A stretch of 39,751 bases of DNA from a phage. Both the position numbers and the translations under genes were made by a program. The stretch is taken from sequence record PZ402302.1; one strand, written 5' to 3'. Under the pieces are notes generated by a model, which worked only from the letters and a program-made list of their open reading frames with translations, ran no database searches and was not told where the DNA came from. This document shows, piece by piece, positions 1 to 39,751 of this stretch; within the stretch, counting starts at the first letter, position 1; every line of letters begins with the position of its first letter.

Positions 1-267
1 ATGTCTGATAAAAGTTTAATTCAATTCCTTGAGATGCTGGACACTGAGATGGCTCAACGTATGCTTGCTGACTTGCAGAACGATGAACGCCGTACACCTC
101 AACTGTACAACGCAATCGGGAAACTATTAGAGCGCCACAAGTTCCAAGTCTCCAAGTTACAGCCAGACCGTAACATCCTTGGTGGACTGGCAGATGGACT
201 TCAGGAGTACCAGAACCTAGTAGGTGACGATGGTCTCACTGAAGATGAGAAGTACACGCTGAACTGA
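1..267 (+). CDS. 18: small terminase subunit / DNA maturase A (T7 gp18-like), 88 aa
   Basis: ORF starts at window pos 1 with ATG; protein MSDKSLIQFLEMLDT...LGGLADGLQEY matches recalled T7 gp18 along its length; lies between holin (window end) and spanin genes. Confidence 0.85.
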   Translation: MSDKSLIQFLEMLDTEMAQRMLADLQNDERRTPQLYNAIGKLLERHKFQVSKLQPDRNILGGLADGLQEYQNLVGDDGLTEDEKYTLN

Positions 268-271
268 TGGA

Positions 272-312
272 ATAACTCAAGGCCACTACATCTAGTGGTC
301 TTTATGATATTT
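272..312 (+). promoter_or_regulatory. RNase III-type processing hairpin (R18.5-like)
   Basis: aactcaaggCCACTAcatcTAGTGGtctttatgat: same aactcaagg...ggcctttatgat frame as T7 RNase III sites; inverted repeat seen directly. Confidence 0.55.
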
Positions 313-365
313 CAACACAACTCACGGTGACGCTACGTGAAATCTGAAAATACGGGAGGGTAGTT

Positions 366-809
366 ATGCTCAAGAATTTAAAGAGCTACGTCATAATAGC
401 TGCGTTTGCCTTGGGTATTACCCTTGCGTATAACCACGGATATGACAAAGCTAACACTAAATGGGAACAGGAGGTGCACAATGAGTACGTTAAGAAAGTT
501 AAGGCGACTGCGGATAAACAAGCTGCTATCAACGAAGTATCACGACAATACCAAGAAGACCTTGCGGCGCTGGAGGGCAGCACTGATAGGGTCATTAATG
601 ATTTGCGTAACGATGGTAAGCGGCTGCGCGTCAAGCTGTCAAACACCTCACGAGAACTCCAAGCTAACGGTGGATGCCTCGCTGATGGTCGAGCCGAACT
701 TGACGAAGAGTTTAGTAAGCGTCTTATCGGAGTAACTCAAAGAGGGGATGCGTGGATTAAAGCGCTCCAAAATACAATAACTGAAATGCAATCTAAGAAG
801 GAGAAATAA
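366..809 (+). CDS. 18.5: i-spanin (Rz-like, T7 gp18.5-like), 147 aa
   Basis: N-terminal TM helix (SYVIIAAFALGITLAY) followed by charged coiled-coil; contains embedded o-spanin ORF; RBS gggaggg upstream; position after gene 18. Confidence 0.85.
   Translation: MLKNLKSYVIIAAFALGITLAYNHGYDKANTKWEQEVHNEYVKKVKATADKQAAINEVSRQYQEDLAALEGSTDRVINDLRNDGKRLRVKLSNTSRELQANGGCLADGRAELDEEFSKRLIGVTQRGDAWIKALQNTITEMQSKKEK
481..735 (+). CDS. 18.7: o-spanin lipoprotein (Rz1-like, T7 gp18.7-like), 84 aa, embedded in +1 frame of 18.5
   Basis: ATG at 481 inside 18.5; MSTLRKLRRLR... then lipobox-like VSGC in LIGSLMICVTMVSGCASS; resembles recalled T7 gp18.7; ORF-track 406 start is a non-ATG extension. Confidence 0.75.
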   Translation: MSTLRKLRRLRINKLLSTKYHDNTKKTLRRWRAALIGSLMICVTMVSGCASSCQTPHENSKLTVDASLMVEPNLTKSLVSVLSE

Positions 810-810
810 T

Positions 811-1368
811 ATGTCTACTACAAACTCAAGAACCCGCACACTCTGGACCATCAATGGTCGCTCACCAGATAGCCGTGATGTGTATGATCGCAACAATATT
901 GGTCTTCGTGTTGGGCGTATCGACATCCCAGCTTCGGAGATGGTTAAGGTAGAGGGATACTCTAAGGTTGAATACGTTGTTCAACTTAGTGATGGCACCA
1001 CTGAGCAACATGCTACGTTCGAGACCCTTATGTCCACTTGGGGTGGCTCCGTCGAGTCTAAACCGGGTAGCGGGTTCATGACGGTGTTCCTGAATGAGCA
1101 AAGCACTGCGCGACTCGGTATGGTTCGAATCGACGTATACAAAGAGTGGACTGGTGCTGACCCTGAACCGGAAGGTGGTATGGCTTCCTTAGTTAGTGCA
1201 ACGCTTTCTGCGTCTGATAGTGAATTTGGTACACAGTTCGTGGATAGCGAAGGGAAGAGTGCTTCCGTTATGTTCCAACCTAGTGACATCGACGGGGCCG
1301 TATCTAAGACCGACACTATCAAGGCTCTTGAGAAGCGAATCGCTGCCTTAGAGAAATCTGCCAAGTAA
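811..1368 (+). CDS. hypothetical protein, 185 aa (no counterpart at this position in T7)
   Basis: Clean ORF with AAGGAG RBS 9 nt upstream of ATG; fills the 18.5-19 gap that is about 20 bp in T7; no Cys, S/T/G/E-rich, C-terminal heptad-like IKALEKRIAALEKSAK; function unknown. Confidence 0.75.
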   Translation: MSTTNSRTRTLWTINGRSPDSRDVYDRNNIGLRVGRIDIPASEMVKVEGYSKVEYVVQLSDGTTEQHATFETLMSTWGGSVESKPGSGFMTVFLNEQSTARLGMVRIDVYKEWTGADPEPEGGMASLVSATLSASDSEFGTQFVDSEGKSASVMFQPSDIDGAVSKTDTIKALEKRIAALEKSAK

Positions 1369-1383
1369 CAATAGGAGGCCACA

Positions 1384-3141
1384 ATGTCTACTCAAGCAAA
1401 CAAGAATGCGCTAATCATTGCGCAACTTAAGGGTGACTTCGTGGCCTTCCTGTTCGTCTTATGGAAGGCTCTGAACTTACCTAAACCAACCAAGTGTCAG
1501 ATTGATATGGCACGTACACTCGCTAATGGCGACCACAAGAAGTTTATCCTTCAGGCGTTCCGTGGTATCGGCAAGTCCTTTATCACCTGTGCGTTCGTCG
1601 TGTGGGTCTTATGGCGTGACCCTCAACTTAAGGTGCTCATCGTGTCTGCCTCCAAGGAACGTGCTGATGCTAACTCCATCTTCATCAAGAACATCATCGA
1701 CCTCCTTCCGTTCCTCTCTGAGTTAAAACCTCGACCGGGACAGCGAGACTCTGTGATTAGCTTCGACGTTGGCTTGGCTAAACCAGACCACTCACCCTCT
1801 GTGAAGTCTGTAGGTATCACTGGTCAGTTGACTGGTAGCCGTGCTGACATCATTATCGCAGATGACGTTGAGGTTCCCGGTAATAGCTCTACGAGTTCTG
1901 CCCGTGAGAAGCTCTGGACGTTGGTAACTGAGTTTGCTGCATTGCTTAAGCCACTGCCTACCTCTCGTGTTATCTACCTTGGTACACCTCAAACCGAGAT
2001 GACGCTCTACAAGGAACTTGAGGATAACAAAGGGTACAGCACAGTAATCTGGCCAGCACAGTATCCTCGTAATGATGCTGAGGCTCTCTACTATGGGGAC
2101 CGCTTGGCTCCGATGCTTAAGGCTGAATACGATGAAGGCTATGAGTTACTTCGTGGTCAACCTACTGACCCTGTTCGATTCGATATGGATGACCTCCGTG
2201 AGCGTGAACTCGAATACGGTAAAGCTGGCTACACTCTTCAGTTCATGCTTAACCCGAACCTTAGTGATGCCGAGAAGTACCCGCTACGGCTCCGTGACGC
2301 TATCGTGTGCGCAGTGGACACTGAACGTGCCCCATTGTCCTACCAGTGGTTGCCGAACCGTCAGAACCGCAATGAGGAACTTCCTAACGTGGGTCTGAAG
2401 GGTGACGACATTCACAGCTTCCATGTGTGTTCCTCTAAGACCGCTGAGTACCAGCAAAAGATTCTCGTCATTGACCCCTCTGGTCGTGGTAAGGATGAAA
2501 CAGGTTACGCAGTCCTCTACACCCTGAACGGCTACATCTACTTGATGGAGGTCGGTGGGTTCCGTGGTGGCTACGATGACCCTACCCTAGAGAAGCTCGC
2601 TAAGAAGGCCAAGCAGTGGAAGGTACAGACGGTCGTACACGAGAGTAACTTCGGTGATGGTATGTTCGGTAAGGTATTCTCTCCGGTTCTCCTGAAGCAC
2701 CACAAGTGTGCCTTAGAAGAGATTCGTGCTCGTGGCATGAAGGAGATGCGTATCTGCGATACTATCGAACCGTTGATGGGTGCACACCGCCTTATCATCC
2801 GTGACGAAGTAATCCGTGAGGACTACCAGACCGCTCGTGACCTCGATGGGAAGCATGATGTTCGCTACAGCGCGTTCTATCAGATGACCCGTATGACTCG
2901 TGAGAAGGGCGCTGTGGCACACGATGACCGACTTGATGCTATCGCATTGGGTATTGAGTTCCTTCGTGAAGGGATGCAGGTGGACTCTAAGGTTGGCGAG
3001 GAAGCTATGACCCTTGAGTTCCTTGAACACCACATGGAGAAACCTATCGTCGGTGGTGACATGGCTCGTGAGTTGGTGTCTGGAGGTGTGGACATCTACT
3101 ATGAGGATGACGGTGACGGAGAGTGCTTCATTGAGTGGTAG
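1384..3141 (+). CDS. 19: large terminase subunit / DNA maturase B (T7 gp19-like), 585 aa
   Basis: Length matches T7 gp19 (586 aa); [24 protein letters not shown]... and conserved blocks recalled from T7 gp19; RBS taggagg. Confidence 0.95.
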
Positions 3142-3228
3142 TAAATAAGTATGCGGGAAAGGTGCATAGGTAAGCACTTAGTACCGCTACGTTACCTTTG
3201 AGTAACTTACTGATATACATGAAGAAAT

Positions 3229-3251
3229 TAATACGACTCACTATTGGGAAG
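3229..3251 (+). promoter_or_regulatory. phage RNAP promoter (phiOR-like)
   Basis: taatacgactcactattgggaag; 17/17 T7-like core except T at -1; sits between gene 19 and 19.5 as phiOR does in T7. Confidence 0.85.
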
Positions 3252-3407
3252 GGCACCCTAAGACAACTTAAAGACACTTATAGACTGCATATGCAAAGTG
3301 CATACTTAGTGACTACTCTTAGAGACCCTTACAGTGTGGGATGATAGTAATTGTAATTACATCCCTACTATCAGTGTAACCATCAAGTATAACAAGGAGG
3401 ACGCTCT

Positions 3408-3563
3408 ATGCGCTTACTATCCGTGCTCAAGACACTGGCAACGCATCGAGTGACCTACAAATTTCTCGCTGTACTTGCTGCTTCCATCGGTCTCGCATCT
3501 AGTGTTGAACACATCGGTGAACTGGAGACTCTGCTTTGTTCTCTACTCACTTGTGTTCCTTAG
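3408..3563 (+). CDS. 19.5: gp19.5-like small protein, 51 aa
   Basis: ATG with RBS aaggagg; MRLLSVLKTLATHRVTYKFLAVLAASIGLASS...; last ORF before terminal repeat as in T7; hand-translated, not in ORF track (<60 aa). Confidence 0.6.
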   Translation: MRLLSVLKTLATHRVTYKFLAVLAASIGLASSVEHIGELETLLCSLLTCVP

Positions 3564-3795
3564 ACTGCTCGTTGGCGCTTAACGCGCTCTTAGTGATTAT
3601 GGTCGATATACATCTTCCCTATAATCACTGTAAGAAGTCAACTCTAAGAGGTAGCCTTATGTATTCCTTAACGGTCTACAGGGTCTCTTAGGGTCTCTCA
3701 CGTGGTCTAACCTTATGATAGCCACTCCAAGGATAACCTTATGAGAGACTTGATGTACCCCCTTTAAGAATCCTACAGAAAAATCTGAGTGGGTA

Positions 3796-3975
3796 TCTCA
3801 TAGTTCATACCAAGTGGTTTCCCCCTGTGGGTAACTCTGTGGATAACCTGAGGATAACTCTGTGGATAACTTGTGGATAACTCTAGGTTAGAGGCTGTGT
3901 GGATAACTTTGGGTGAGACTGTTAGTAACTCTGTGGATAACTCTGTGTCTCTGTGTCCCTATCTGTAAGTGACCT
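3796..3975. repeat. putative terminal repeat (single collapsed copy; concatemer junction / physical genome ends)
   Basis: Start tctcatag...ttccccctgtggg and end gtgtctctgtgtccctatctgt...acc resemble recalled first and last bases of the T7 160-bp terminal repeat; flanked by short-repeat arrays; lies between 19.5 and phiOL. Confidence 0.5.
3838..3940. repeat. array of TGTGGATAA repeats (complement of DnaA-box TTATCCACA): 5 perfect copies + 1 one-mismatch copy
   Basis: Perfect copies at 3838, 3861, 3872, 3898, 3932; tgAggataa at 3849; all same orientation, extended consensus ctgtggataact, 11-12 bp spacing for the first four. Confidence 0.8.
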
Positions 3976-4045
3976 TTGAGTTATCACCTTATGTTATCAC
4001 CTTATGACCCTTTAAGTATCACCTTATGGCTGGTTATCCTTATGT
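3976..4045. repeat. short direct-repeat array (tatcaccttatg-type) just inside the left genome end
   Basis: gttatcaccttatg x2, gtatcaccttatg, ggttatccttatg in 70 bp; related ccttatg copies also at 3655-3745 on the other side of the terminal repeat; analogous in position to T7 SRL/SRR repeats. Confidence 0.6.
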
Positions 4046-4119
4046 TAACCTTCAGTCGGTGCCTTCAGTCCATAGACCTATCGTTGCCACTCTTAGACCA
4101 GCCTTAAAGACCATACAGC

Positions 4120-4142
4120 TAATATGACTCACTATTGAGGAA
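4120..4142 (+). promoter_or_regulatory. phage RNAP promoter (phiOL-like, degenerate)
   Basis: taatatgactcactattgagg: core with C-to-T at -12 and non-GGG start; first promoter after the left end, as phiOL in T7. Confidence 0.6.
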
Positions 4143-4225
4143 TAGCTAATACTGGTCATCTTCCTTATATGGATAACTTAAAGACTACCAAAAGAGATAC
4201 TTTGAGAATTCTTTAAGATTGAGTA

Positions 4226-4254
4226 TTGACATTGATAATAGCTTATGAGACTAT
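4226..4254 (+). promoter_or_regulatory. host sigma70 early promoter candidate (A1-like)
   Basis: TTGACA at 4226-4231, 17-bp spacer, -10-like gactat/actata; upstream of gene 0.3. Confidence 0.45.
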
Positions 4255-4360
4255 AGCAACCGTTGAGAGACACAACGCTACCAACCACTAGACAAGACCG
4301 AGAGTTATCTAGTGAGGCTGAAGGGTCTCAAGTAGTCATCAACCAGACACACGAAAGTGG

Positions 4361-4389
4361 TTGACTCAACGAAAGCAATAACGTAGTAT
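4361..4389 (+). promoter_or_regulatory. host sigma70 early promoter candidate (A2-like)
   Basis: TTGACT at 4361-4366, 17-bp spacer, -10 TAGTAT at 4384-4389. Confidence 0.55.
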
Positions 4390-4450
4390 AGCAGTCGTCA
4401 ACAACTGGTCGCCCTCTGAAACAACATGAGGTGTCACGGTGAGAAAGTAG

Positions 4451-4479
4451 TTGACACGGTAACGAAAGCACGATAAGAT
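4451..4479 (+). promoter_or_regulatory. host sigma70 early promoter (A3-like)
   Basis: TTGACA 4451-4456, 17-bp spacer, -10 TAAGAT 4474-4479; downstream gatgtaccac...agtgagtcaccacactgaaaggtgatgcggtctaacgaaacctgacc nearly identical to recalled T7 A3 region. Confidence 0.7.
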
Positions 4480-4600
4480 GTACCACGAAATGACGGAACA
4501 GTGAGTCACCACACTGAAAGGTGATGCGGTCTAACGAAACCTGACCAAAGACGCTCTTTAACAATCTGGATAATAGCTCTTGAGTGTACCGTATAAGCGA

Positions 4601-4671: not shown

Positions 4672-5130
4672 ATGATTTTCACTAAAGAGCCTGCTAATGT
4701 CTTCTATGTACTGGTGTCAGCTTTCCGTTCCAACCTCGACGATGAGGTGAATATGAGTCGTCACCGCCACATGGTAAGCACTTTACGTGCCGCACCGGGT
4801 CTTTATGGCTCCGTTGAGTCAACCGATTTGACCGGGTGCTATCGTGAGGCAATCGCAAGCGCACCGACTGAGGAAAAAACGGTTCGTGTACGCTGCAAGG
4901 ACAAGGCGCAGGCACTCAATGTTGCACGCTTAGCTTGCAATGAGTGGGAGCAAGATTGCGTACTGGTATACAAATCACAGACTCACACGGCTGGTCTGGT
5001 GTACGCTAAAGGAATCGACGGTTACAAGGCTGAACGTCTGCCGGGTAGCTTCCAAGAAGTGCCTAAAGGCGCACCGCTTCAAGGTTGCTTTACGATTGAT
5101 GAGTTCGGTCGCCGCTGGCAAGTACAGTAA
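4672..5130 (+). CDS. 0.3: S-adenosylmethionine hydrolase/lyase (T3 gene 0.3-type SAMase; anti-restriction), 152 aa
   Basis: MIFTKEPANVFYVLVSAFRSNL...CFTIDEFGRRWQVQ matches recalled T3 0.3 SAMase almost residue for residue; first early gene after the sigma70 promoters; not Ocr-like. Confidence 0.9.
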   Translation: MIFTKEPANVFYVLVSAFRSNLDDEVNMSRHRHMVSTLRAAPGLYGSVESTDLTGCYREAIASAPTEEKTVRVRCKDKAQALNVARLACNEWEQDCVLVYKSQTHTAGLVYAKGIDGYKAERLPGSFQEVPKGAPLQGCFTIDEFGRRWQVQ

Positions 5131-5134
5131 GTGT

Positions 5135-5185
5135 TAAACTCAAGGTCGCTCCTAGCGAGTGGCCTTTATGATTATCACTTTAACC
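5135..5185 (+). promoter_or_regulatory. RNase III-type processing hairpin (R0.5-like)
   Basis: aaactcaaggtcgctcctagcgagtggcctttatgattatcactt: essentially identical to recalled T7 R0.5 site. Confidence 0.75.
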
Positions 5186-5202
5186 AATGAAGGAAGCACA
5201 CA

Positions 5203-5487
5203 ATGCGTTTAAGTAAAGATACAGCGGTGGCACTACGCTCAGCAATTGAATCCAAAGCTGCACACAACGTGGGAGGTCTTGCGGATATTGCACGGGCTTA
5301 TGAGGAGAAAGGTCTAACATTCCGTCGATTTATGTGGGACTGTTACCACGCAGTAGGCTTTCAAGAAACGACCAGAATAATCTCTGAGCACAACACGGTT
5401 ACGTTAATCGGTGGACACCTAACAGACGTGACTGATGCACACATCGAAACAATACTCAAGGTTGCGCTTAAAGATTTGCAATACTAG
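5203..5487 (+). CDS. hypothetical early protein, 94 aa
   Basis: ATG with RBS aaggaag; bracketed by RNase III-type hairpins; MRLSKDTAVALRSAIESKAAHNVGG...; no recognisable T7 0.4/0.5 similarity. Confidence 0.65.
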   Translation: MRLSKDTAVALRSAIESKAAHNVGGLADIARAYEEKGLTFRRFMWDCYHAVGFQETTRIISEHNTVTLIGGHLTDVTDAHIETILKVALKDLQY

Positions 5488-5639
5488 TGATAAACTCAAG
5501 GTCGCTCCATGCGAGTGGCCTTTATGATTATCACTTTGAAACAACGCACGGGATTAATATCAAGTGATAAACTCAAGGTCGCTCCATGCGAGTGGCCTTT
5601 ATGATTATCACTTTGAAACAACGCACGGGATTAATATCA
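5486..5639. repeat. perfect 2 x 77-bp tandem duplication, each unit carrying an RNase III-type hairpin
   Basis: 5486-5562 and 5563-5639 are identical; each contains aaactcaaggtcgctccatgcgagtggcctttatgattatcac; starts in the stop codon of the 94-aa ORF and ends at the ATG of the 0.6A-like ORF. Confidence 0.9.
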
Positions 5640-5889: not shown

Positions 5890-6987
5890 ATGAACTACAC
5901 CGACATTCAGGCACGTCTGGCAATCATCAAGTCTCTCCCGATTAGTGAACTGGACAAGCGCCAGCCTCTTCTGGTTGCACTGGCTGCTGACATCGTGAAC
6001 GGTGAGACAAGTGATGGCAACGATACTGATGGCTCAAATGGCTTGGAGTATCAAGACTGGTGGCACACATTGGGTGCACTAATGCGTGATGCAGGTTTCC
6101 GCATGTTAGGTAATGGTCACTTTAGCGCGGCCTACTCGCATGAACTGTTACCGGGTCGAGTCATCAAGGTTGGCTTTAAGAAAGAGGATTCAGGCGCTGC
6201 ATACACCGCATTCTGTAGGATGCACCAAGGTCGAGCGGGTATCCCTAACGTCTATCACGTAGCACGTCATGCAGGTTGCTACACGGTTGTTCTTGACAAG
6301 CTGTTAGCATGTGACCGCGATAATTATGACCATGAGGTATACGCTGACCTAGCACGTTACTTTGTGGAGTCGGATTGCCATGACGCAAGCGACTTTGCAC
6401 CGGGTGACTACGAGTTCATTGAGACCTGCCAGCTTATCCGCAAGTTCTTCAAAGGGATTGCATCGTTTGACATGCACAGCGGGAACATTATGTTCTCTGA
6501 AGATGGCACACCATACATCACTGACCCGGTTAGCTTCTCACATGACCGTGAACGTGAGGACGGCTTCCCTCTGGACCCGGATGCACTGATTGCCGAGGTC
6601 GAGGCAATAGCTAACGAGCGCATCATTGAACGTTGCCGCAACCGCAAGGCCAAGTGTGACCCTAACGGCTCCTTTCAGGTTAACCGCAAGGCCGCAATGA
6701 AACGCCGCAAGCGCAACCGCAAGTTACGTGCTAAACATGCAGCGGAAGGAATGCACCAGTTTGTCAAAGGGCGTCTTGAGCGTAGAGCTATTGACCGCAA
6801 CGAACGCCGTGCTGAGATGTTCATGGGGTCTGCATGGCGCGACTTTTGGTTACGCAACGGTAACGCAACGGTCCGCAAGATTGACCAAGTGAACGGCCTC
6901 AAGTGGCAACTAGGGGACCGCCTAGCAATCCAAGCGGGTCTACCTCTGAACATCGACAAGTTACTTGACGCACAACTGAAAGGCTGA
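5890..6987 (+). CDS. 0.7: serine/threonine protein kinase / host transcription shut-off protein (T7 gp0.7-like), 365 aa
   Basis: Conserved blocks LPICELDKRQ, MLGNGHFSAAYSH, RVIKVGFKKEDSGAAYTAFCRM, IASFDMHSGNIMFS, ITDPVSF shared with recalled T7 gp0.7; immediately upstream of gene 1. Confidence 0.9.
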   Translation: MNYTDIQARLAIIKSLPISELDKRQPLLVALAADIVNGETSDGNDTDGSNGLEYQDWWHTLGALMRDAGFRMLGNGHFSAAYSHELLPGRVIKVGFKKEDSGAAYTAFCRMHQGRAGIPNVYHVARHAGCYTVVLDKLLACDRDNYDHEVYADLARYFVESDCHDASDFAPGDYEFIETCQLIRKFFKGIASFDMHSGNIMFSEDGTPYITDPVSFSHDREREDGFPLDPDALIAEVEAIANERIIERCRNRKAKCDPNGSFQVNRKAAMKRRKRNRKLRAKHAAEGMHQFVKGRLERRAIDRNERRAEMFMGSAWRDFWLRNGNATVRKIDQVNGLKWQLGDRLAIQAGLPLNIDKLLDAQLKG

Positions 6988-7060: not shown

Positions 7061-9712
7061 ATGACTAACGTAATCAACGCACCAAAGAACGACTTCTCTG
7101 ACATCGCTAACGCAATCATGCCGTACAACATTCTGGCTGACCATTACGGTGCACAGCTTGCAGCTACGCAGTTACAGCTTGAGCACGAAGCGCACACTGA
7201 GGGTGAGAAGCGTTTTCTTAAGGCAATGGAACGTCAAATCAAAGCGGGTGAGTTCGGTGATAACGCAGTGGCTAAACCGCTCCTGTCATCTCTCGCACCG
7301 AAGTTTATCGAGGCGTGGAACACTTGGTTCACTGAAGTGGAAGCGAAGCGTGGCAAGCGTCCAGTGGCTTACAATCTGGTACAGAAGGTTGCACCTGAAG
7401 CTGCTGCATTCATCACACTGAAGGTCACGCTGGCTTGCTTGACGAAAGAAGAGTTCACCAACCTGCAATCGGTCGCTACTAAGATTGGTCGTAGCATTGA
7501 AGATGAACTGCGTTTTGGTCGCATCCGTGACGAAGAAGCGAAGCACTTTAAGAACCACGTACAGGAGGCACTGAACAAGCGCGTTGGCATCGTCTACAAG
7601 AAAGCATTCATGCAAGCCGTAGAGGGTAAGATGCTTGATGCTGGTCAACTGCAAACCAAGTGGACTACATGGACACCTGAAGAATCAATTCACGTTGGTG
7701 TGCGCATGTTGGAACTGCTCATCGGGTCTACTGGTCTCGTTGAGTTACACCGCCCGTTCGCTGGGAACATCGAGAAGGATGGCGAGTACATCCAGTTAAC
7801 AGAACAATATGTAGACCTGCTGTCTAAACGTGCTGGTGCACTGGCTGCAATCGCTCCGATGTATCAGCCTTGCGTGGTCCCTCCGAAGCCTTGGACTTCT
7901 CCGGTTGGTGGTGGCTATTGGGCGGCTGGTCGCAAGCCTCTCTCTCTGGTTCGTACTGGTAGCAAGAAGGGACTGGAACGTTACAACGATGTGTACATGC
8001 CTGAAGTTTACAAGGCGGTGAACATCGCACAGAATACTCCTTGGAAGATTAACAAGAAGGTTCTGGCAGTGGTCAACGAGATTGTGAACTGGAAGCATTG
8101 CCCGGTTGAAGATGTACCTGCTCTCGAACGTGGTGAACTGCCTGTCAAACCTGAAGACATCGACACGAACGAAGCGGCTCTGAAAGCGTGGAAGAAAGCG
8201 GCCTCCGCAATCTATCGCAAAGAGAAAGCACGAGTTTCTCGCCGCATGAGCATGGAGTTCATGTTAGGTCAGGCCAATAAGTTCGCACAGTTCAAAGCTA
8301 TCTGGTTCCCAATGAACATGGACTGGCGCGGTCGTGTGTATGCTGTGCCGATGTTTAACCCGCAAGGCAACGACATGACCAAAGGCTTGTTGACGCTCGC
8401 TAAAGGTAAACCAATTGGTGTCGATGGGTACTACTGGCTGAAGATTCATGGTGCAAACACTGCTGGCGTGGACAAGGTGGACTTTGCAGAACGCATCAAG
8501 TTCATTGATGACAACCATGAGAACATCATGAGCGTAGCTGCTGACCCGATTGCTAACACTTGGTGGGCCGAGCAAGACTCTCCGTTCTGCTTCCTCGCGT
8601 TCTGCTTCGAGTATGCAGGAGTCCAGCACCACGGAATGAACTACAACTGCTCTCTTCCGCTGGCGTTTGATGGTAGCTGCTCCGGTATTCAGCACTTCTC
8701 CGCAATGCTTCGTGATGAAATTGGCGGTCGCGCTGTTAACTTACTGCCGAGCAAGGAAGTCCAAGACATCTACCGCATCGTAGCGGAACGTGTCAACGAG
8801 ATTCTGAACCAAGATGTTATCAACGGGACCGACAACGAAGTAGAGACCGTGACCAACAAGGACACAGGGGAAATCACTGAGAAGCTCAAGCTGGGCACTA
8901 AAGAACTAGCTGGTCAGTGGCTGGCCTACGGTGTGACCCGCAAGGTCACTAAGCGTTCGGTTATGACGTTGGCTTACGGTTCCAAAGAGTACGGATTCCG
9001 TGACCAAGTTCTTGAGGATACCATTCAGCCAGCTATCGACGATGGCAAGGGCTTGATGTTCACTCAACCGAACCAAGCGGCTGGCTATATGGCTAAACTG
9101 ATTTGGAACGCGGTAACGGTGACAGTGGTCGCAGCGGTTGAAGCAATGAACTGGCTGAAGTCTGCGGCTAAACTTCTAGCTGCTGAAGTCAAGGACAAGA
9201 AGACCAAAGAGGTTCTCCGCAAGCGCTGCGCGGTACATTGGGTTACTCCTGATGGCTTCCCGGTCTGGCAGGAATACAAGAAGCCAGTACAGACCCGCTT
9301 GAACCTGATGTTCTTAGGCCAGATTCGTCTACAGCCTACCGTGAACACCAACAAGGATAGCGGAATTGATGCTCGTAAGCAGGAGTCAGGCATCGCACCT
9401 AACTTTGTCCACTCAATGGATGGAAGCCACCTGCGCATGACTGTGGTCCGCTCCAATGAGGTCTACGGTGTGGAATCGTTCGCACTGATTCACGACTCCT
9501 TTGGTACTATCCCTGCTGATGCTGGCAACCTGTTTAAAGCAGTGCGCGAAACGATGGTCAACACTTACGAAGAGAACGATGTACTAGCAGACTTCTATGA
9601 GCAATTTGCTGACCAGTTACATGAATCGCAGCTTGACAAGATGCCTGAGATGCCAGCTAAAGGTTCTCTGGACCTGCAAGAAATCCTTAAGTCAGACTTT
9701 GCGTTTGCCTAA
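7061..9712 (+). CDS. 1: single-subunit DNA-dependent RNA polymerase (T7 gene 1-like), 883 aa
   Basis: Same length as T7 RNAP; long identical stretches by recall (ACLTKEEF-type palm/fingers blocks, specificity-loop region PTVNTNKDSGIDARKQESGIAPNFVHS, C-terminus SDFAFA). Confidence 0.97.
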   Translation: MTNVINAPKNDFSDIANAIMPYNILADHYGAQLAATQLQLEHEAHTEGEKRFLKAMERQIKAGEFGDNAVAKPLLSSLAPKFIEAWNTWFTEVEAKRGKRPVAYNLVQKVAPEAAAFITLKVTLACLTKEEFTNLQSVATKIGRSIEDELRFGRIRDEEAKHFKNHVQEALNKRVGIVYKKAFMQAVEGKMLDAGQLQTKWTTWTPEESIHVGVRMLELLIGSTGLVELHRPFAGNIEKDGEYIQLTEQYVDLLSKRAGALAAIAPMYQPCVVPPKPWTSPVGGGYWAAGRKPLSLVRTGSKKGLERYNDVYMPEVYKAVNIAQNTPWKINKKVLAVVNEIVNWKHCPVEDVPALERGELPVKPEDIDTNEAALKAWKKAASAIYRKEKARVSRRMSMEFMLGQANKFAQFKAIWFPMNMDWRGRVYAVPMFNPQGNDMTKGLLTLAKGKPIGVDGYYWLKIHGANTAGVDKVDFAERIKFIDDNHENIMSVAADPIANTWWAEQDSPFCFLAFCFEYAGVQHHGMNYNCSLPLAFDGSCSGIQHFSAMLRDEIGGRAVNLLPSKEVQDIYRIVAERVNEILNQDVINGTDNEVETVTNKDTGEITEKLKLGTKELAGQWLAYGVTRKVTKRSVMTLAYGSKEYGFRDQVLEDTIQPAIDDGKGLMFTQPNQAAGYMAKLIWNAVTVTVVAAVEAMNWLKSAAKLLAAEVKDKKTKEVLRKRCAVHWVTPDGFPVWQEYKKPVQTRLNLMFLGQIRLQPTVNTNKDSGIDARKQESGIAPNFVHSMDGSHLRMTVVRSNEVYGVESFALIHDSFGTIPADAGNLFKAVRETMVNTYEENDVLADFYEQFADQLHESQLDKMPEMPAKGSLDLQEILKSDFAFA

Positions 9713-33389: not shown

Positions 33390-36300
33390 GTGGATAAGTA
33401 TAACCCGAACGAACCGCATGAATATGATGCGTTATTTCAACAAGCTGCTGACACACATGGAGTCTCCTATGGCCTTCTTCGGAAGGTCGGTTGGGTAGAG
33501 TCCCGCTTTAAACCTACGGCTCAATCACCAACAGGGCCGAGAGGTGTCATGCAGTTCACTAAGGCAACTGGTCAGGCTTATGGTCTCCAGAACGATGAGG
33601 ACTTCACTGACCCGGCTAAGTCCATTGATGCAGGTGCTCGTTACCTTGCAGACCTCGTTAAGAAGTACGATGGCGATGAACTTAAAGCTGCCCTAGCGTA
33701 CAACCAAGGTGAAGGGCGTAATGGTAAGCCACAACTGGAAGCCTACGATTCTGGTAACTTTGCTGGCATCGGTGATGAGGGGCGTAACTATCTGCGTTCA
33801 CTTCTGGATGTCGCTAAGTCACCTAAGAGTGGTGACATTGAGTCATTCGGAGGTATCACCCCAAAGGCTAAAGGGATTCCGTTTGATGCTGCGATGAGTG
33901 GTATCGGGAAGAAAGGAAAGGTAACAACTGAACTCCCTGAGTCTCACGAAATGTCCTTTCAAGGTAAAGAACAGGCCGCTCCCAATCAGCCGTTCGGAAA
34001 AGATTATTGGGAAGCCAAAGGTACAACTCTTGACGAAGCAAACGAGCGTTCAACCTTCTTCGGATTTGGTAATGCTGCCGAAGCAGAACTCTCTAACTCA
34101 ACCTTGGGTGTTGCCTTCCGTGCTGGTAAGCGTGACAATGGTTTCGATGTTCTTACTGACGTACTTCAGCCGACACGGTTTAATAGCCACATTTGGTCGC
34201 CTGAAGAACTCGAAAAGATTCGCAACGAAGTGAAGAACCCTGCGTACATGAACGTTGTACTTGGTGGTTCCGCTGAGAACCTTGACGAGCTAATCAAGTT
34301 AGCCAATGAGAACTTCGAGTTGGACTCTAAGGCCGCTGATGCTGGCCTTGCTGCCAAACTGTCTGCTGGCCTGATTGGTGCTGGTGTGGACCCGTTGACC
34401 TACGTCCCAATCGCAGGGAGTACAGCCAAGGGGTTCAAACTGGTGAACAAGGCGTTGATGGTGGGTGCTCAAGCTGGTGCACTTAACGTTGCCTCCGAGG
34501 GTCTGCGTACATCCGTTGCTGGTGGTGATGCTCACTATGCGGAAGCTGCTCTTGCTGGTATGCTGCTTGCTGGGGGACTCACTGCGGTTGCTGATGGTGT
34601 TGCTGCTGGTCTCCGTAAGTCTGGTGCTGAACAGATTGAGAACCCGTTTGCTGCTGCGCAGATGCGTTTTGAGGCTCGTGAGACTGCCCGTAACACTGAT
34701 GGATATGATGCAAGTCGTATGCCTCCGAGTGAAGACCGAGTGTTCTCACAGCACAACGGCGTTGAGTATGCACCTCTCGAAACTGAACCGGGTGCGGTAG
34801 TTCTGAAGGACGGCTCAATCATTAGTGATACCAACTTGGCTAACCCAATGACTGCCAAAGAGTTTGCCGAGGTAGACCCTGAACGTGCTGCTTGGGGATT
34901 GCCTATGCGTGGCCTGAGTGAAATCGGTTTGAGAACTCTACGTTCTGAACATGCAGAAATCCGTGGACTAGCTAAGGACTTAGTGCGCTCACCTACAGGT
35001 ATGGAGTCTGGCTCACATGGTAAGTTTGGGGCTACCGCCTCAGACATCAAAGAGCGCCTACACAGTAACAACCAGCGAACCTACAATGACCTCTATGGTG
35101 CAATGAAGGAAGCTATGGCTGACCCTGAGTGGTCTGTGGGTATGTTCAAGCAGGGTGCCCAAGGTGCTCGTCAGGAAATCTATCGTCGTGTTGCAATCGC
35201 TATTGAGCGTCCAGAACTTCAGGCCAACTTAACGAAGGCTGAACGTAAGGTAATGGACATCATGAAGGAACATTTCGACCTCAAGCGTGAGATGATGGAG
35301 AACCCGTCGATGTTCGGCAACAAGGCAACTTCCATCTTCCCTAACAGTCGTCACAAAGGGACTTACGTTCCTCATGTGTACTCACGGGAAGCCAAGCAGC
35401 TGTACTCACAGGCTCTCGGTGGCTCTGATGGTTTACAGGAAGCAATCGCTGCAAGCTGGATGACCTCTTACCGTTCACGTCCAGAAGTTAAGACTCGTGT
35501 GGATGAGCATTTAGCGGAGACATTGGGTATCGACCCTAAAGCTGTTACCGAAGAGATGGTGATGAAACATGCCAGCGACAAGGCTTATGGTATTGCGAAG
35601 ACAGATGAGTTCAACTCTTCAAGTGTCATCGACGATAACATTGAGGGTCTGGTAGGGATTGAGAATAACTCGTTCCTTGAAGCCCGTAACCTGTTCGATT
35701 CTGACATGCCAGTCACGCTCCCGAATGGACAACAGTTCTCTGTGAATGACCTCCGAGACTTCGATATGAAGCATGTGATGCCAGCATATGACCGCCGTGT
35801 TGATGGTGATATTGCTATCATGGGTGGTACAGGAAAGACGACTGCTGAACTCAAGGATTCCATCATGGCTCTCGATAAGAAGTCAGAAGGGAAAGGCACG
35901 ATGAAAGGTGAAGTAGAGGCACTTAAGGATACCGTTAAGATTCTCACCGGTCGTGCCCGACGCAATCATGATACTGTAGGGGACACTATGGTCCGTGCTC
36001 TGTCCGATATGTCCTTCTTTACGAAGAACGCATACATGGGCTTGCAGAACCTAACCGAAATCTCCGGTATGTTACAGAAGGGTAATATTCGTGCGATGCT
36101 TCATGGCATTCCGGTACTGCGTGACTTAGCATTCCGCAACAAGCCAGTCTCCGGTAGTGAACTCAAAGAACTCCACTCTATGGTGTTCGGTAAAGAGTTC
36201 GACCAGTTAATCCGACCGTCCCGTCAGGACATCATTCAGCGACTCCGCGAATCCACTGATACACCAGATGTAGCCGCTAAGGTTGTTGGGACCATTAAGC

Positions 36301-37337
36301 ACACAACTCAAGAACTGGCGGCTCGCTCACCTCTGACCAAGTTCCTCAACGGTACATCAAACTACCTTCTGGACATGGCCCGTCAAGGTGTCATGGGGGA
36401 TGTGGTAACTCACGCCATTACTGGTAAGGGTGCCAACAAGTGGATTAAAGGAGACATGCTGAAATCTGCGAGTATCTCTAAGGAACAGTGGGAAGGCATT
36501 CAGAACCTCATCCGCGAGAACGTCACTCAAGGCGCTGACGGCAAGTACACCTTCAAGGACAAGCGCAAGCTGGCTAATGACCCTCGTGCTATGGACTTGT
36601 GGCGCTTAGCTGATAAGGTTGCCGATGAGACAATGCTGAGACCTCACAAGGTTTCACTTCAGGATTCCCATGCGTTTGGTGCTGCCGCTAAGTTGGTCCT
36701 TCAGTTTAAGTCGTTTGTCATCAAGTCGATGAACTCTAAGTTTATCCGCTCTGGTCACGAGGCTATGAAGAATCACCGAGCTATGGACATGGCGCTGACC
36801 TACGCAATCTCTGGAGGTATCGCTGGTTCCTACTACGTGGCACAGGCCCACTTGAAGGCTGCTGGTCTACCTAAAGAGCAACAGAAGGACTACTTGAAGA
36901 AAGCTCTTGACCCTAAGATGATTGCCTATGCTGCTGCGTCCCGAAGTTCACACCTTGGGTCGCCTCTGAGTATCGCAAACTTCGCTATGGGTGCTGCTGG
37001 TTATGACCAAGGTCTCATGGTCCGCTCTACTATTCTCCCGAAAGGTGAGGACAAGCGGGAACGGAATAAGGCGGTAACTTCCCGTGACATGAGTGAATCC
37101 ATTATGGGTGCTATTGGTGAACAGGTTCCTGCTCTTGGCTTCGCGGGTGCTGCTCTAGCTACTGGTCGAAATGCTTATGGTGTCCTTACGGCTCCAAACA
37201 AAGTGACCGAGCGTGAGATGATGACTGGCTTAATGAACGCCCACCGAGAGATGATTCCTAACGACCCAATCTCTCAACAGATGCTTATTAAGTTCTATGA
37301 GGCCAACGGTGTTCACATTAAGGCTGACAAGAAGTAA
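33390..37337 (+). CDS. 16: internal virion protein D with N-terminal lytic transglycosylase domain (T7 gp16-like), 1315 aa; GTG start
   Basis: N-terminus VDKYNP...GVSYGLLRKVGWVESRF.P.A.S.TGP.GVMQFTKATGQAYGL (SLT motif) and many downstream blocks match recalled T7 gp16; GTG at 33390 with RBS taggagg 6 nt upstream. Confidence 0.95.
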   Translation: MDKYNPNEPHEYDALFQQAADTHGVSYGLLRKVGWVESRFKPTAQSPTGPRGVMQFTKATGQAYGLQNDEDFTDPAKSIDAGARYLADLVKKYDGDELKAALAYNQGEGRNGKPQLEAYDSGNFAGIGDEGRNYLRSLLDVAKSPKSGDIESFGGITPKAKGIPFDAAMSGIGKKGKVTTELPESHEMSFQGKEQAAPNQPFGKDYWEAKGTTLDEANERSTFFGFGNAAEAELSNSTLGVAFRAGKRDNGFDVLTDVLQPTRFNSHIWSPEELEKIRNEVKNPAYMNVVLGGSAENLDELIKLANENFELDSKAADAGLAAKLSAGLIGAGVDPLTYVPIAGSTAKGFKLVNKALMVGAQAGALNVASEGLRTSVAGGDAHYAEAALAGMLLAGGLTAVADGVAAGLRKSGAEQIENPFAAAQMRFEARETARNTDGYDASRMPPSEDRVFSQHNGVEYAPLETEPGAVVLKDGSIISDTNLANPMTAKEFAEVDPERAAWGLPMRGLSEIGLRTLRSEHAEIRGLAKDLVRSPTGMESGSHGKFGATASDIKERLHSNNQRTYNDLYGAMKEAMADPEWSVGMFKQGAQGARQEIYRRVAIAIERPELQANLTKAERKVMDIMKEHFDLKREMMENPSMFGNKATSIFPNSRHKGTYVPHVYSREAKQLYSQALGGSDGLQEAIAASWMTSYRSRPEVKTRVDEHLAETLGIDPKAVTEEMVMKHASDKAYGIAKTDEFNSSSVIDDNIEGLVGIENNSFLEARNLFDSDMPVTLPNGQQFSVNDLRDFDMKHVMPAYDRRVDGDIAIMGGTGKTTAELKDSIMALDKKSEGKGTMKGEVEALKDTVKILTGRARRNHDTVGDTMVRALSDMSFFTKNAYMGLQNLTEISGMLQKGNIRAMLHGIPVLRDLAFRNKPVSGSELKELHSMVFGKEFDQLIRPSRQDIIQRLRESTDTPDVAAKVVGTIKHTTQELAARSPLTKFLNGTSNYLLDMARQGVMGDVVTHAITGKGANKWIKGDMLKSASISKEQWEGIQNLIRENVTQGADGKYTFKDKRKLANDPRAMDLWRLADKVADETMLRPHKVSLQDSHAFGAAAKLVLQFKSFVIKSMNSKFIRSGHEAMKNHRAMDMALTYAISGGIAGSYYVAQAHLKAAGLPKEQQKDYLKKALDPKMIAYAAASRSSHLGSPLSIANFAMGAAGYDQGLMVRSTILPKGEDKRERNKAVTSRDMSESIMGAIGEQVPALGFAGAALATGRNAYGVLTAPNKVTEREMMTGLMNAHREMIPNDPISQQMLIKFYEANGVHIKADKK

Positions 37338-37338
37338 A

Positions 37339-37361
37339 CAATACGACTCACTATTGGGAAG
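37339..37361 (+). promoter_or_regulatory. phage RNAP promoter (phi17-like)
   Basis: caatacgactcactattgggaaggc. Confidence 0.85.
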
Positions 37362-37407
37362 GCTCACATAGCTTCCCTCTATTTACCTAACCGAAAGGAG
37401 GCTACAG

Positions 37408-39432
37408 ATGGCTAACAAAATTTCCACTGTGCGTACTTACCCACTTAATGGTGCCGTGAACTTCACAATCACCTTTGAGTATCTGGCCCGTAAGTTCGTG
37501 CAAGTAACCCTAATTGGTAAAGACCGTAAGGAACTGGTTCTCAATCAGGACTACCGCTTTACCTCTAAGACGCAAATCACAACCTCTCGTACTTGGACTG
37601 CCGCAGATGGCTACCAGATGATTGAGATTCGTCGATTCACTTCAGCTACTGACCGTCTGGTTGACTTTGCTGATGGCTCTATTCTTCGTGCGTATGACCT
37701 GAACATCTCACAGATTCAGACGCTGCACGTTGCTGAGGAAGCACGAGACCTCACTGCTGATACTATTGGTGTCAACAACGATGGTCACTTAGATGCCCGT
37801 GGTCGTAAGATTGTGAACCTTGCGTTCGCTACCAATGACTATGATGCTGTCCCTCTGAAGCAGATTAAAGAGCGTGAGTCCTCTGCGTGGAATGCTGTCA
37901 CTAAGGCAAACGAACATGCTGACCGTTCTAATCGAGAGGCTAACCGTTCTCGTGATGAGGCTAACCGTGCTCAACGTGAAGCTGACCGTTCAACTCAACA
38001 GGCGGGTATCTCTACGGCACAGGCGGTTGAGTCTAAGAAGCAAGCTGACCGTTCTAACTCTGAGGCCAACCGTGCTAAAGGTTATGCTGATAGTATGACA
38101 GCCAGTGTCGCTGAGGCCAAGAAGCAAGCTGACCGTTCCAACTCTGAGGCCAATCGTGCCCGTGATGAGGCCAATCGTGCTGCCGGAGAAGTGACTAAAG
38201 CTGCTGCGGAGGTTGCCAAGGCTGCTGCACATGTTGAGACCGCTAAAGGTCATGCAGACCGCGCGAACACTGAGGCTAATCGCTCCAAAGGTGAGGCTGA
38301 CCGTGCTAAGACTGAGGCCGACAAGTTAGGCAGCATGAATGCACTTGCAGGGGCTATTGAAAGTGTATCAGGCAATGATGTACGCTTTAAGGGTAAAGTA
38401 AGTGGGCACAGTCTGACTCTACATAATGATGCTAAAGGCGCTGGGACTCAACCAGTAGACCAAGTGTGGAACCAGTGGCGTGGTCAGGACTCTAAGGAGA
38501 CCGTATGGGAACAGTGGATTCAAGCTGGGACAAAACGAATGGACTACTATGTGTTCACTAACACCGACCCGGCAACGTGGCCTGAAGGTCGTTCCAATGG
38601 TCATGGTCGTCATGACTTCTATGGTGGATTCCACTCTCATCATGACTCTCGATTCTACCAGAACGTCTCTATGGATGGGTATCTTCGAGTATCTAAGTAT
38701 ATTAGGGCTGACGAGAGATTCTACACTGAGTCAACTTTTGGGTCAGGAGCGTTCGCAAACCAGTTGAACAACAATGCCCCTTACTCTCAAAGCCTCCCCG
38801 GAAATCAGGATGGTAAGGTATACTACCCTATGATTAAACAATATGGTAGACGCTCAAATGGTTATCCGGCGGCATTCTCCATCGGTATGGTATCCAAGGG
38901 TAGCAACAACTTCCACGATGGTATCATCCAACTCAAGGGGGATGGCGGTAATGAACATGCCCTTACAATGACTATTCAAGGCGCATTGGCAAGTAGTAAG
39001 GGGTGGCAGATTGCGGCAGATGGTAACTTATACATCAAGAAGTATGATTCTTACATCGACGGTTGGGTAAACAAACGCCTTGGTGAACATGCTTACAATA
39101 AAAGCGAAGTAAACAACCTAGTCAATGGACGGTTAACTCAAGCGCAAGCTGATGGTCGCTACATTCGCAAGAACGCTGGGTGGTCAGAAGTATGGCATGG
39201 TTCCGCTGGTGGTGGGGTATCCGTAGGTCTCTCTCAAGATGTCCGCTGGAGAACCATCTGGATTCAAACTCAAGGCAAATGGAACCCGGTTGAGATTGGG
39301 GACAATGGGGCTTACTACATTTCATCGATGGGCGGGTGGTTGACCTTTACAATCTCCAACAACGGGCGTACATTCCGTAACGATGGTGATAGGTCTTCTG
39401 TTCCTACACGCATCCTTGTGCGTAACAACTAA
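37408..39432 (+). CDS. 17: tail fiber protein (gp17-like), 674 aa: conserved N-terminal tail-attachment domain, repeat-rich shaft, divergent C-terminal receptor-binding region
   Basis: First ~150 aa (MANKISTVRTYPLNGAVNFTITFEYLARKFVQVTLIGKDRKELVLNQDYRF...) match recalled T7/T3 gp17; ADRSNSEANRA-type repeats residues ~170-300; C-terminal ~370 aa not recognisably T7-like. Confidence 0.92.
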   Translation: MANKISTVRTYPLNGAVNFTITFEYLARKFVQVTLIGKDRKELVLNQDYRFTSKTQITTSRTWTAADGYQMIEIRRFTSATDRLVDFADGSILRAYDLNISQIQTLHVAEEARDLTADTIGVNNDGHLDARGRKIVNLAFATNDYDAVPLKQIKERESSAWNAVTKANEHADRSNREANRSRDEANRAQREADRSTQQAGISTAQAVESKKQADRSNSEANRAKGYADSMTASVAEAKKQADRSNSEANRARDEANRAAGEVTKAAAEVAKAAAHVETAKGHADRANTEANRSKGEADRAKTEADKLGSMNALAGAIESVSGNDVRFKGKVSGHSLTLHNDAKGAGTQPVDQVWNQWRGQDSKETVWEQWIQAGTKRMDYYVFTNTDPATWPEGRSNGHGRHDFYGGFHSHHDSRFYQNVSMDGYLRVSKYIRADERFYTESTFGSGAFANQLNNNAPYSQSLPGNQDGKVYYPMIKQYGRRSNGYPAAFSIGMVSKGSNNFHDGIIQLKGDGGNEHALTMTIQGALASSKGWQIAADGNLYIKKYDSYIDGWVNKRLGEHAYNKSEVNNLVNGRLTQAQADGRYIRKNAGWSEVWHGSAGGGVSVGLSQDVRWRTIWIQTQGKWNPVEIGDNGAYYISSMGGWLTFTISNNGRTFRNDGDRSSVPTRILVRNN

Positions 39433-39476
39433 TGGAATACAACGAGGCCAAGGATGGCTGACACTAGGAGGACATA

Positions 39477-39683
39477 ATGTTGTCATTGGATTTTAATAAC
39501 GAGGTAGTGAAGGCTGCTCCGATTGTAGGGACAGGTGTAGCCGATGGTGCTGCCCGTCTGTTCTTCGGACTGTCCCTTAACGAGTGGTTCTATGTAGCTG
39601 CAATTGCTTACACGGTGGCTCAAATTGGTGCCAAGGTAGTCGATGTGATTATCAAATGGAAGAAGGAGGGTAAAGATGTATAA
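39477..39683 (+). CDS. 17.5: holin / lysis protein (T7 gp17.5-like), 68 aa
   Basis: MLSLDFNNEVVKAAPIVGTGVADGAARLFFGLSLNEWFYVAAIAYTVAQIGAKVVD nearly identical to recalled T7 gp17.5. Confidence 0.9.
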   Translation: MLSLDFNNEVVKAAPIVGTGVADGAARLFFGLSLNEWFYVAAIAYTVAQIGAKVVDVIIKWKKEGKDV

Positions 39684-39751
39684 GATCGGTTATGGGGAAG
39701 GTATCCAAATGGACGAACACCCGGATTTCATTAACGGAGAGGAGAATTGGG
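39676..39751 (+). CDS. short ORF running off the window end (MYKIGYGEGIQMDEHPDFINGEENW...); would end 8 nt into the window start if the sequence is circularly permuted
   Basis: ATG at 39676 overlaps the holin 3-prime end; open to the last base; joined to position 1 it reads ...W-D-V-stop overlapping the gene 18 ATG. Confidence 0.25.
   Translation, partial: MYKIGYGEGIQMDEHPDFINGEENW

Follow-up and report, generated by a model that had tools for sequence, protein, structure and literature searches.

Results

Gene content and orientation of the genome

The window, that is, the whole 39,751-nt stretch of phage DNA analysed here (record PZ402302.1), ends with the holin gene 17.5 and begins with gene 18, encoding the small subunit of the terminase. 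When its two ends are joined, a 27-codon open reading frame (hereafter the mini-ORF) connects both genes. The features at this junction are as follows (here and below, a slash within a sequence marks the edge of the window or of the terminal repeat):

39477..39683, + strand: gene 17.5, class II holin, 68 aa (phrog_920, E 2.7e-29; homologous to the annotated holins of relatives)
39681-39683, + strand: stop codon TAA of the holin gene, overlapping the start of the mini-ORF in ATGTATAA
39676..39751, + strand: 76-nt insertion, comprising the first 25 codons plus 1 nt of the mini-ORF (a gap in the comparison with relatives; present in metagenome contig L023)
1..8, + strand: last two codons and stop of the mini-ORF (G/AT GTC TGA), overlapping the start of gene 18 in ATGTCTGA
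1..267, + strand: gene 18, terminase small subunit, 88 aa (phrog_1351, E 2e-42)

Megablast placed the window in the genus Berlinvirus. The T7 gene set and order, including the single-subunit RNA polymerase and the late genes 17, 17.5, 18, 18.5 and 19, were recognized from PHROG matches and from colinearity with the phages BA14 and nasanit. Other genes identified with PHROGs were:

366-809: Rz spanin
1384-3141: terminase large subunit
4672-5130: 0.3-like early gene
5890-6987: 0.7 kinase, early gene
7061-9712: RNA polymerase, early gene
37408-39432: tail fibre

Comparison by BLASTN with BA14, a linear record with annotated terminal repeats, revealed a pure rotation, in which BA14 35842-39657 corresponds to window 1-3830 and BA14 182-35849 to window 3948-39683, the sole break in colinearity falling within the terminal repeat. 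A reading of the sequence made without database searches (the sequence-only reading) had proposed a genome rotated to begin at gene 18, and the BA14 colinearity agrees with that proposal. The wrapped gene order that it described, with holin 17.5 at the end of the window and gene 18 at position 1, was likewise confirmed by the PHROGs identities. In BA14 itself (EU734171), the gene 18 ORF is present at 35842-36111 and aligns with window 1-267, yet no CDS is annotated there in GenBank.

Escherichia phage nasanit (PV245933) is 98.1% identical to the window over window positions 5563-38360 and 94.6% over positions 6-4483. It resembles the window in being about 98% identical over most of the genome and in having a rotated record with one copy of the repeat, and differs from it in lacking the 76-nt insertion and in the C-terminus of the tail fibre. 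The nasanit record starts 44 nt before the holin gene; the start of the window, at the gene 18 ATG, lies 76+207+44 nt further on. Many other T7-like records share with the window a collapsed repeat and a re-oriented assembly, and the loss of terminal repeats in short-read assemblies has been described (PMC10438801). A rotated genome with a collapsed repeat is therefore routine and already known.

A 76-nt insertion at the holin/gene 18 junction creates a mini-ORF

The mini-ORF begins at an ATG (39676-39678) and extends over 25 codons plus 1 nt to the end of the window, continuing across the join as G/AT GTC TGA with its stop at position 8. The resulting 27 codons encode the peptide MYKIGYGEGIQMDEHPDFINGEENWDV, followed by the stop. 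These are the start, the length and the end, 8 nt past the joined window start, that the sequence-only reading had assigned to an ORF spanning the ends of the record.

A joined 575-nt query (holin, junction and gene 18) was compared with GenBank, where it aligned in two pieces that leave out about 73 nt. The insertion was absent from all ~1,070 matching phage records checked, including BA14, Kvp1, nasanit, Ship_A7 and BP12A. The junction reads GGTAAAGATGTCTAATGATAAA in BA14, Kvp1 and nasanit, where the gene 18 ATG overlaps the holin stop, and GGTAAAGATGTCTGATAA in Ship_A7 and BP12A, and relative to these last two phages the window carries a clean 76-nt insertion. A direct repeat, GATGT, flanks the insertion (39675-39679 and 39751/1-4). 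Since these repeats are present and the usual 3' end of the family described below (GGGATGTNTGAYGA) resembles the native junction (AAGATGTCTGATAA), the sequence suggests that the insertion arose through microhomology-guided recombination.

Stop-start overlaps join the mini-ORF to the upstream holin gene (ATGTATAA) and to the downstream gene 18 (ATGTCTGA). A Shine-Dalgarno sequence, GGAGAGGAG (39736-39744), lies within the insertion 7 nt upstream of the gene 18 ATG, followed by the spacer AATTGGG and then by ATGTCTGA. The former ribosome site of gene 18, AAGGAGG (39663-39669), is now located 6 nt upstream of the mini-ORF ATG, and from this site and the intact ATG we infer that the mini-ORF is translated. 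In the mechanism that we propose, the 76-nt cassette would have been inserted exactly into GATGTCTGA, the overlapping stop-start by which gene 18 is normally coupled to holin 17.5, and would have taken over the resident AAGGAGG and ATG for its own 27-codon cistron. Its 3' end would supply a fresh ribosome-binding site and the ATGTCTGA overlap, so that gene 18 should remain translationally coupled. The coupling from holin to gene 18 would thereby become one from holin to mini-cistron to gene 18.

The mini-ORF belongs to a family of micro-proteins

Length alone does not lift a 27-codon ORF above chance, and it is homology, rather than length, that argues for the reality of the mini-ORF. The peptide partially matches phrog_6828, which is catalogued without a function (E 1.7e-4, residues 4-18), and two mini-ORFs of the Cronobacter phage CR3 match the same family at 2e-7 and 3e-6. 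No Pfam model matched the peptide, and a literature search for the motifs of the family found nothing relevant. When the 120-nt junction was compared with phages by blastn, only weak matches of 48 nt appeared, which tblastn later showed to be in frame. In tblastn searches, intergenic DNA without annotation matched the 27-aa peptide in frame in Klebsiella T4-like phages (E 0.01 database-wide, 14/18 residues identical) and also in Cronobacter and Pectobacterium rV5-like phages, and no T7-like phage was matched. The tiny ORFs concerned encode MVNEENWGFIDLDEHPDFITSEENWDV in Roth16 and MQMNSTELVIGYGEGIRSEEDWGLGEENWDV and, overlapping it, MFDEFDGFVGWGEGIRSAEDVDFFDEHPDF in CR3, each ending at a stop codon, and overlap the adjacent genes at ATGA or ATGTNTGA. 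Stop-start arrangements like that of the window also occur at loci L005, L007 and L014.

A scan of IMG/VR for EENWDV followed by a stop (EENWDV-stop) returned 14 loci, although about 1.5 chance matches are expected and one or two of the loci, L013 especially, may be such matches. In each of these genomes, the modules GYGEGI, EEDWG, DE[HR]PD[FL], EENWDV-stop and M(F/Y)DEFDGF lie clustered at a single site. The window peptide contains the modules IGYGEGI, DE[HR]PD[FL] and EENWDV in this order and in one frame, and lacks the N-terminal DEFDGF (MKDEFDGF) and the central RSAEDVDVF modules. A search of 5.8 billion proteins, for which members of the family were artificially fused into one query, so that its E-values are to be read accordingly, yielded nine clusters only (P0001-P0009), all unnamed and 38-83 aa long. 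By BLASTP, P0002 (MKDEFDGFIGYGEGIRSAEDAGVFDERPDLITNEENWDV) and the window peptide are identical at 18 of 31 positions (pairwise E 2e-10). Because this alignment starts at residue 4 of the window peptide and runs to its end, the window copy is, as judged from sequence, a shortened member of the family.

The family is found mostly in large enterobacterial myoviruses, and the contigs encoding P0006 and P0002 have no T7-like genes among their called genes. P0006 adjoins NAD-salvage genes, as in locus L006 of an rV5-like Pectobacterium phage. The mini-ORF shares with the phrog_6828 and P0001-P0009 proteins of rV5-like, T4-like and other large enterobacterial phages the order of the modules, the stop-start overlaps and an acidic and aromatic composition. 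It differs from them in its length of 27 aa and in its setting, which is the holin/small-terminase junction of a 40-kb podovirus and not the accessory regions of a myovirus. The mini-gene of the window thus adds a member to a family that is catalogued but uncharacterised, and shows this family in a new setting.

Several arrangements were observed in other phages. In the large myoviruses of loci L005 (1474-1811), L007 (1474-1805) and L014 (2530-2740), mini-ORFs stand in tandem in different frames, up to three consecutively, and in T4-like and rV5-like phages they precede a small zinc-ribbon-like protein with a CxxC...CxxC pattern. Roth16 has three frames within about 30 nt (EENWDV-stop, MYDEFDGF-stop and MTNLMG...). 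At L018 (1886-1932) and L022 (139-162; both in reverse-strand coordinates), the ultra-short ORFs MFNEENWDV-stop and MNEENWDV-stop are located directly upstream of the next gene, an arrangement that is suggestive only. The gene that follows at L018, judged by eye, resembles a small terminase of the Terminase_2 type (MARAKLNEYGVTEQQEKFCQAF...). L018 and L022 may represent a further link between the module and a small-terminase leader, or a chance match.

The family shows the substitution pattern of coding sequence

Codon alignments were analysed by the Nei-Gojobori method. The alignments were picked from protein alignments, which biases pN downward. The window and the P0002 gene gave a pS of about 1 (14.8/13.5) and a pN of 0.16, the window and Roth16 a pS of 0.96 and a pN of 0.13, and the window and CR3, over 13 codons, a pS of 0.95 and a pN of 0. 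Within the modules, the same amino acids are encoded by many nucleotide versions (12-13 distinct ones each for IGYGEGI and DEHPDF), with the variation concentrated at third codon positions. Synonymous sites are therefore saturated while residues are conserved, a pattern that conservation of the DNA or RNA sequence cannot explain. We conclude from it that the family most probably encodes peptides under purifying selection.

The reading that best withstands these data, among those that compete with a coded peptide, is that the insertion is real but non-coding, a portable translation-initiation region or a recombination scar in which the peptide is irrelevant. The nucleotides that encode EENWDV-stop, the most conserved module, correspond exactly to a Shine-Dalgarno site (GAGGAG), a spacer, an ATG and the overlapping stop TGA. 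The cassette also keeps the flanking genes coupled, and in some phages (L012 and L019) neighbouring modules lie in different frames. Against this stand the pS of about 1 with a pN of at most 0.16, and the modules IGYGEGI and DEHPDF, which contain no initiation signal and yet keep their amino acids while third positions vary freely. The predicted RNA fold of the junction was no better than that of shuffled sequences (z +0.98), which speaks against a stable RNA structure, and an RNA-element reading of the junction was dropped on this result. We consider the non-coding reading unlikely, and prefer a translated member of the micro-protein family. Part of the conservation of EENWDV-stop could nevertheless derive from the embedded ribosome site, ATG and stop, and not from the peptide.

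The terminal repeat lies inside the window as a single copy

The features used to place the physical ends of the virion DNA are the following:

3229..3251, + strand: equivalent of the phage RNA-polymerase promoter phiOR (TAATACGACTCACTATTGGGAAG; promoter repeat family D1, colinear with BA14 phiOR 39073-39095)
3766..3795, + strand: conserved unique sequence AAGAATCCTACAGAAAAATCTGAGTGGGTA, adjoining the repeat on its left and, in the concatemer, lying before the right-hand copy (identical in BA14, near-identical in Kvp1; AAAAATCTGAGTG core also in T7)
3796..3960, + strand: direct terminal repeat, single collapsed copy, 165 bp (boundary motifs common to T7, BA14 and Kvp1; end-to-end alignment with the Ship_A7 repeats)
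3838..3940, + strand: five perfect TGTGGATAA 9-mers, the complement of the DnaA-box consensus TTATCCACA, inside the repeat and in the same orientation
3959..3966, + strand: equivalent of the "concatemeric junction" (CTATCTGT; aligned to BA14 misc_feature 193-200)
4120..4142, + strand: equivalent of the phage promoter phiOL (TAATATGACTCACTATTGAGGAA; aligned to BA14 phiOL 353-375)

In T7, BA14 and Kvp1 the left end is characterized by the motif AAAAATCTGAGTG..TA/TCTCAYAGT, whose equivalent is present at window 3766-3815, a segment that was also compared with Ship_A7. The left boundary of the window repeat (3795/3796) reads AAGAATCCTACAGAAAAATCTGAGTGGGTA/TCTCATAGTTCATACC, and the junction AAAAATCTGAGTGGGTA/TCTCATAGTT at 3796 coincides with the left-end junctions of T7, BA14 and Kvp1 and with the first base of the 177-bp repeat of Ship_A7. 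On the right, the motif TCTCTGTGTCCCT/ATCTGT of T7, BA14 and Kvp1 has its equivalent at 3948-3966, and the boundary (3960/3961) reads CTGTGTCTCTGTGTCCCT/ATCTGTAAGT. Over this region Shigella phage VB_Ship_A7 (Ship_A7) is more closely related to the window, and the exact 177-bp repeats with which its record begins and ends align to window 3796-3961.

From these boundaries, the left physical end is predicted at 3796 and the last base of the right end at 3960, plus or minus 1. The exact end may shift by one base, as the annotations of Kvp1 and Ship_A7 are 1 nt off those of BA14 and T7. The virion DNA would accordingly measure 39,916 bp, running from 3796 to 39751 and on from 1 to 3960, with 3796-3960 at both ends. 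As in T7, from whose biology this step is taken, the terminase would process head-to-tail concatemers at conserved junction sequences to produce the virion ends. In the assembly, both short direct terminal repeats of this linear molecule would have collapsed to one copy, giving a circle that was opened at the gene 18 ATG.

A second copy of the 165-nt segment was not found anywhere in the window, where the segment matches itself alone. Together with the BA14 colinearity, this supports the earlier proposal of an internal terminal-repeat region present in one collapsed copy. Of the two ends proposed with it, near 3796 and 3975, the left one proved exact, while homology to T7, BA14, Kvp1 and Ship_A7 moves the right one to 3960 (or 3961), 15 nt short of 3975. 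The 15 nt beyond 3960 (ATCTGTAAGTGACCT) are also conserved among the relatives, as a repeat reaching to about 3975 would have it. The duplicated segment in T7, BA14 and Ship_A7, however, ends in ...GTGTC(C/T)CT(A), and the ATCTGT that follows is unique sequence, present only after the left copy, which makes the longer repeat very unlikely.

The repeat of the window resembles those of T7, BA14, Kvp1 and Ship_A7 (160, 194, 194 and 177 bp, respectively) in gene order, in the boundary sequences, in being flanked by phiOR and phiOL, and in the short CCTTATG-type repeats on both sides. It differs in its length of 165 bp, its distinct interior, its presence in one copy and the start of the record at gene 18. 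This interior, which in the window has five perfect DnaA-box 9-mers, is shared only with nasanit, P483, Ship_A7 and vB_SEqdws-315. The 9-mer TGTGGATAA occurs five times in 39.7 kb, always within the repeat, against 0.31 occurrences expected by chance, and none of 100 shuffled sequences reached five. Elsewhere, nasanit has five copies, and the Ship_A7 repeat has four plus near-copies. No copy was found in the left-end segments of BA14 and Kvp1 (first 1,200 nt) or T7 (first 500 nt). The interior of the repeat also gave weak matches to intergenic regions of gokushoviruses and microviruses.

The rotation itself is a matter of bookkeeping. Annotators should report positions as in the virion (left end 3796, repeat of 165 bp, total of 39,916 bp) and should keep the gene that spans the ends of the record.

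A second phage carries the mini-ORF at the same junction

Scanning of IMG/VR gave no match to the exact end of the window peptide, nor to the junction between EENWDV-stop and gene 18, and a second T7-like carrier came only from a metagenome scan for the encoded motif. This contig, Ga0079226_10032548 (L023), runs contiguously through the holin gene, the mini-ORF peptide MYKVGYGEGIQMDEHPDFINGEENWDV with its stop, and gene 18. Its mini-ORF differs from that of the window at 3 nt, of which two are synonymous and one changes I to V. L023 belongs to a distinct Berlinvirus-like phage, whose tail fibre cannot be aligned with that of the window, whose holin and gene 18 are 80.7% and 90.3% identical, and which lacks the gene at 811-1368. 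As L023 reads through the junction, the two ends of the window do adjoin each other, and at least two lineages possess the mini-ORF. A recent transfer, considered on account of the high identity between the window and L023 around the insert, was unsupported, as the 3' end of the holin gene is equally conserved in insert-free relatives.

These data bear directly on the possibility that the mini-ORF is a chance frame or an artefact of joining or trimming the ends of the assembly, such as junk at the point of circularisation. ORFs of this length are common by chance, and the extra 76 nt lie exactly at the edge of the window and are absent from every GenBank relative examined. The edge position is, however, explained by a record cut at the gene 18 ATG, directly after the insertion, and micro-proteins from unrelated phages give end-to-end alignments with the peptide in which synonymous sites are saturated. 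With the same sequence contiguous in the different phage backbone of L023, an artefact is largely refuted and highly improbable. Hardly any probability at all is left for physical ends at the window edges or at a site other than 3796/3960, or for headful packaging of circularly permuted DNA without fixed ends. The positions 3796 and 3960 were indeed placed by homology, but the late genes on either side of the window edges are translationally coupled and adjoin each other in BA14, T7, nasanit and L023, and T7-type end motifs are conserved at 3796 and 3960. The terminase genes, of the T7 and not the pac type, and the genome organization are those of T7, a phage whose fixed ends are short direct terminal repeats.

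The best explanation, which as a whole we regard as very probable, is that the window represents a complete genome of a Berlinvirus (T7 family), assembled as a circle through collapse of its repeat and opened at the gene 18 ATG, and that the ORF across its ends is a contiguous mini-gene derived from a 76-nt cassette.

A different insertion occupies the same junction in Klebsiella phages

In 13 of 80 T7-like loci from IMG/VR, of the Klebsiella przondovirus type, a different insert of 30 nt was found at the holin/gene 18 junction, encoding MKDERPDL and a stop, that is, the DE[HR]PD[FL] module. The carriers (L069, L071, L072, L077, L085-L089, L091, L095, L097 and L101) have it around position 655-690, with the variants MTDERPDL, MMDERPDL and VKDEHPDL and an ATGA overlap with the holin stop. 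Since the 76-nt and 30-nt inserts at this junction differ, it has been struck at least twice independently. An apparent 189-nt gap between holin and gene 18 in three IMG/VR loci was rejected as an insertion, being an artefact of the 55-aa ORF filter.

Possible role of the micro-proteins

Trp or Phe occurs in the acidic peptides of the family, several of which have ...DEHPDF, ...DEFDGF or ...DERPDL as their C-terminus. Bacterial SSB has an acidic, Phe-terminated C-terminal tail, and the window's own gp2.5 and gp4 end in ...GWNEEPEEDDEDEDGDF (...EDDEDEDGDF) and ...EDDGQDF, respectively. The likeness to the tails of T7 gp2.5 and gp4 and of bacterial SSB, short and strongly acidic with Trp or Phe, is a functional analogy of composition and not sequence homology, and the window peptide differs from them in ending with ...NWDV and not with Phe. 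On this compositional resemblance alone we would guess, with low probability, that the peptide might act as a decoy for such acidic, aromatic-ended C-terminal tails (gp2.5, gp4, SSB). The main alternative to a decoy role is that the cassette acts purely in cis, as a portable region for initiation, which is itself unlikely.

Other very small, recurrent and apparently mobile units are known between phage genes. The PeSL elements of T4-type phages are mobile regulatory cassettes made of promoter and stem-loop units, and the bar minigenes of lambda are two-codon ORFs. The cassette family resembles them in these respects, and differs in encoding a conserved peptide of 27-39 aa and in having neither a promoter nor a stable hairpin. 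A wider and rather speculative reading, to which we give little weight, would make the mini-ORF one of a class of horizontally mobile, translationally self-sufficient micro-cistrons that enter stop-start overlaps, that have struck the T7-like junction at least twice, and whose peptides act in trans, for example as decoys for SSB, gp2.5, gp4 or clamp-binding tails. If this were true, the carrier would gain in replication, in competition between phages or against host defence.

The family thus appears to move between very different phages, and the sequence at the junction indicates that it can enter a translational coupling site without breaking the coupling. Most gene callers skip ORFs below about 30 codons, and the micro-protein family is therefore almost invisible in databases. 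The two independent insertions at the holin/terminase junction offer a tractable T7-like test system for such peptides.

Other variable regions of the window

A perfect 77-nt tandem duplication (5486-5562 and 5563-5639) in the early region contains an element resembling an RNase III site (AACTCAAGGTCGCTCC...GGCCTTTATGATTATCACTTT), diverged copies of which are located at 4596 and 5130. The alignment with nasanit breaks at this duplication (window 5184 to 5563), which could be real or an assembly artefact. Between genes 18.5 and 19, the window has a 185-aa ORF without assigned function (811-1368; phrog_20446, E 1.7e-126) that is present in BA14 and nasanit and absent from L023. The annotation of Kvp1 has no gene in the 18.5/19 interval and a different extra gene, 18.2, between 18 and 18.5. 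The 18.5/19 interval looks like a variable slot for accessory genes. Finally, the distal part of gene 17 (38360-39432) does not align with nasanit over 38361-39016 and is 80% identical over 39017-39407, compared with 98% elsewhere. This C-terminal divergence of gene 17 from nasanit, in a gene that is unalignable in L023, is a typical host-range module swap.
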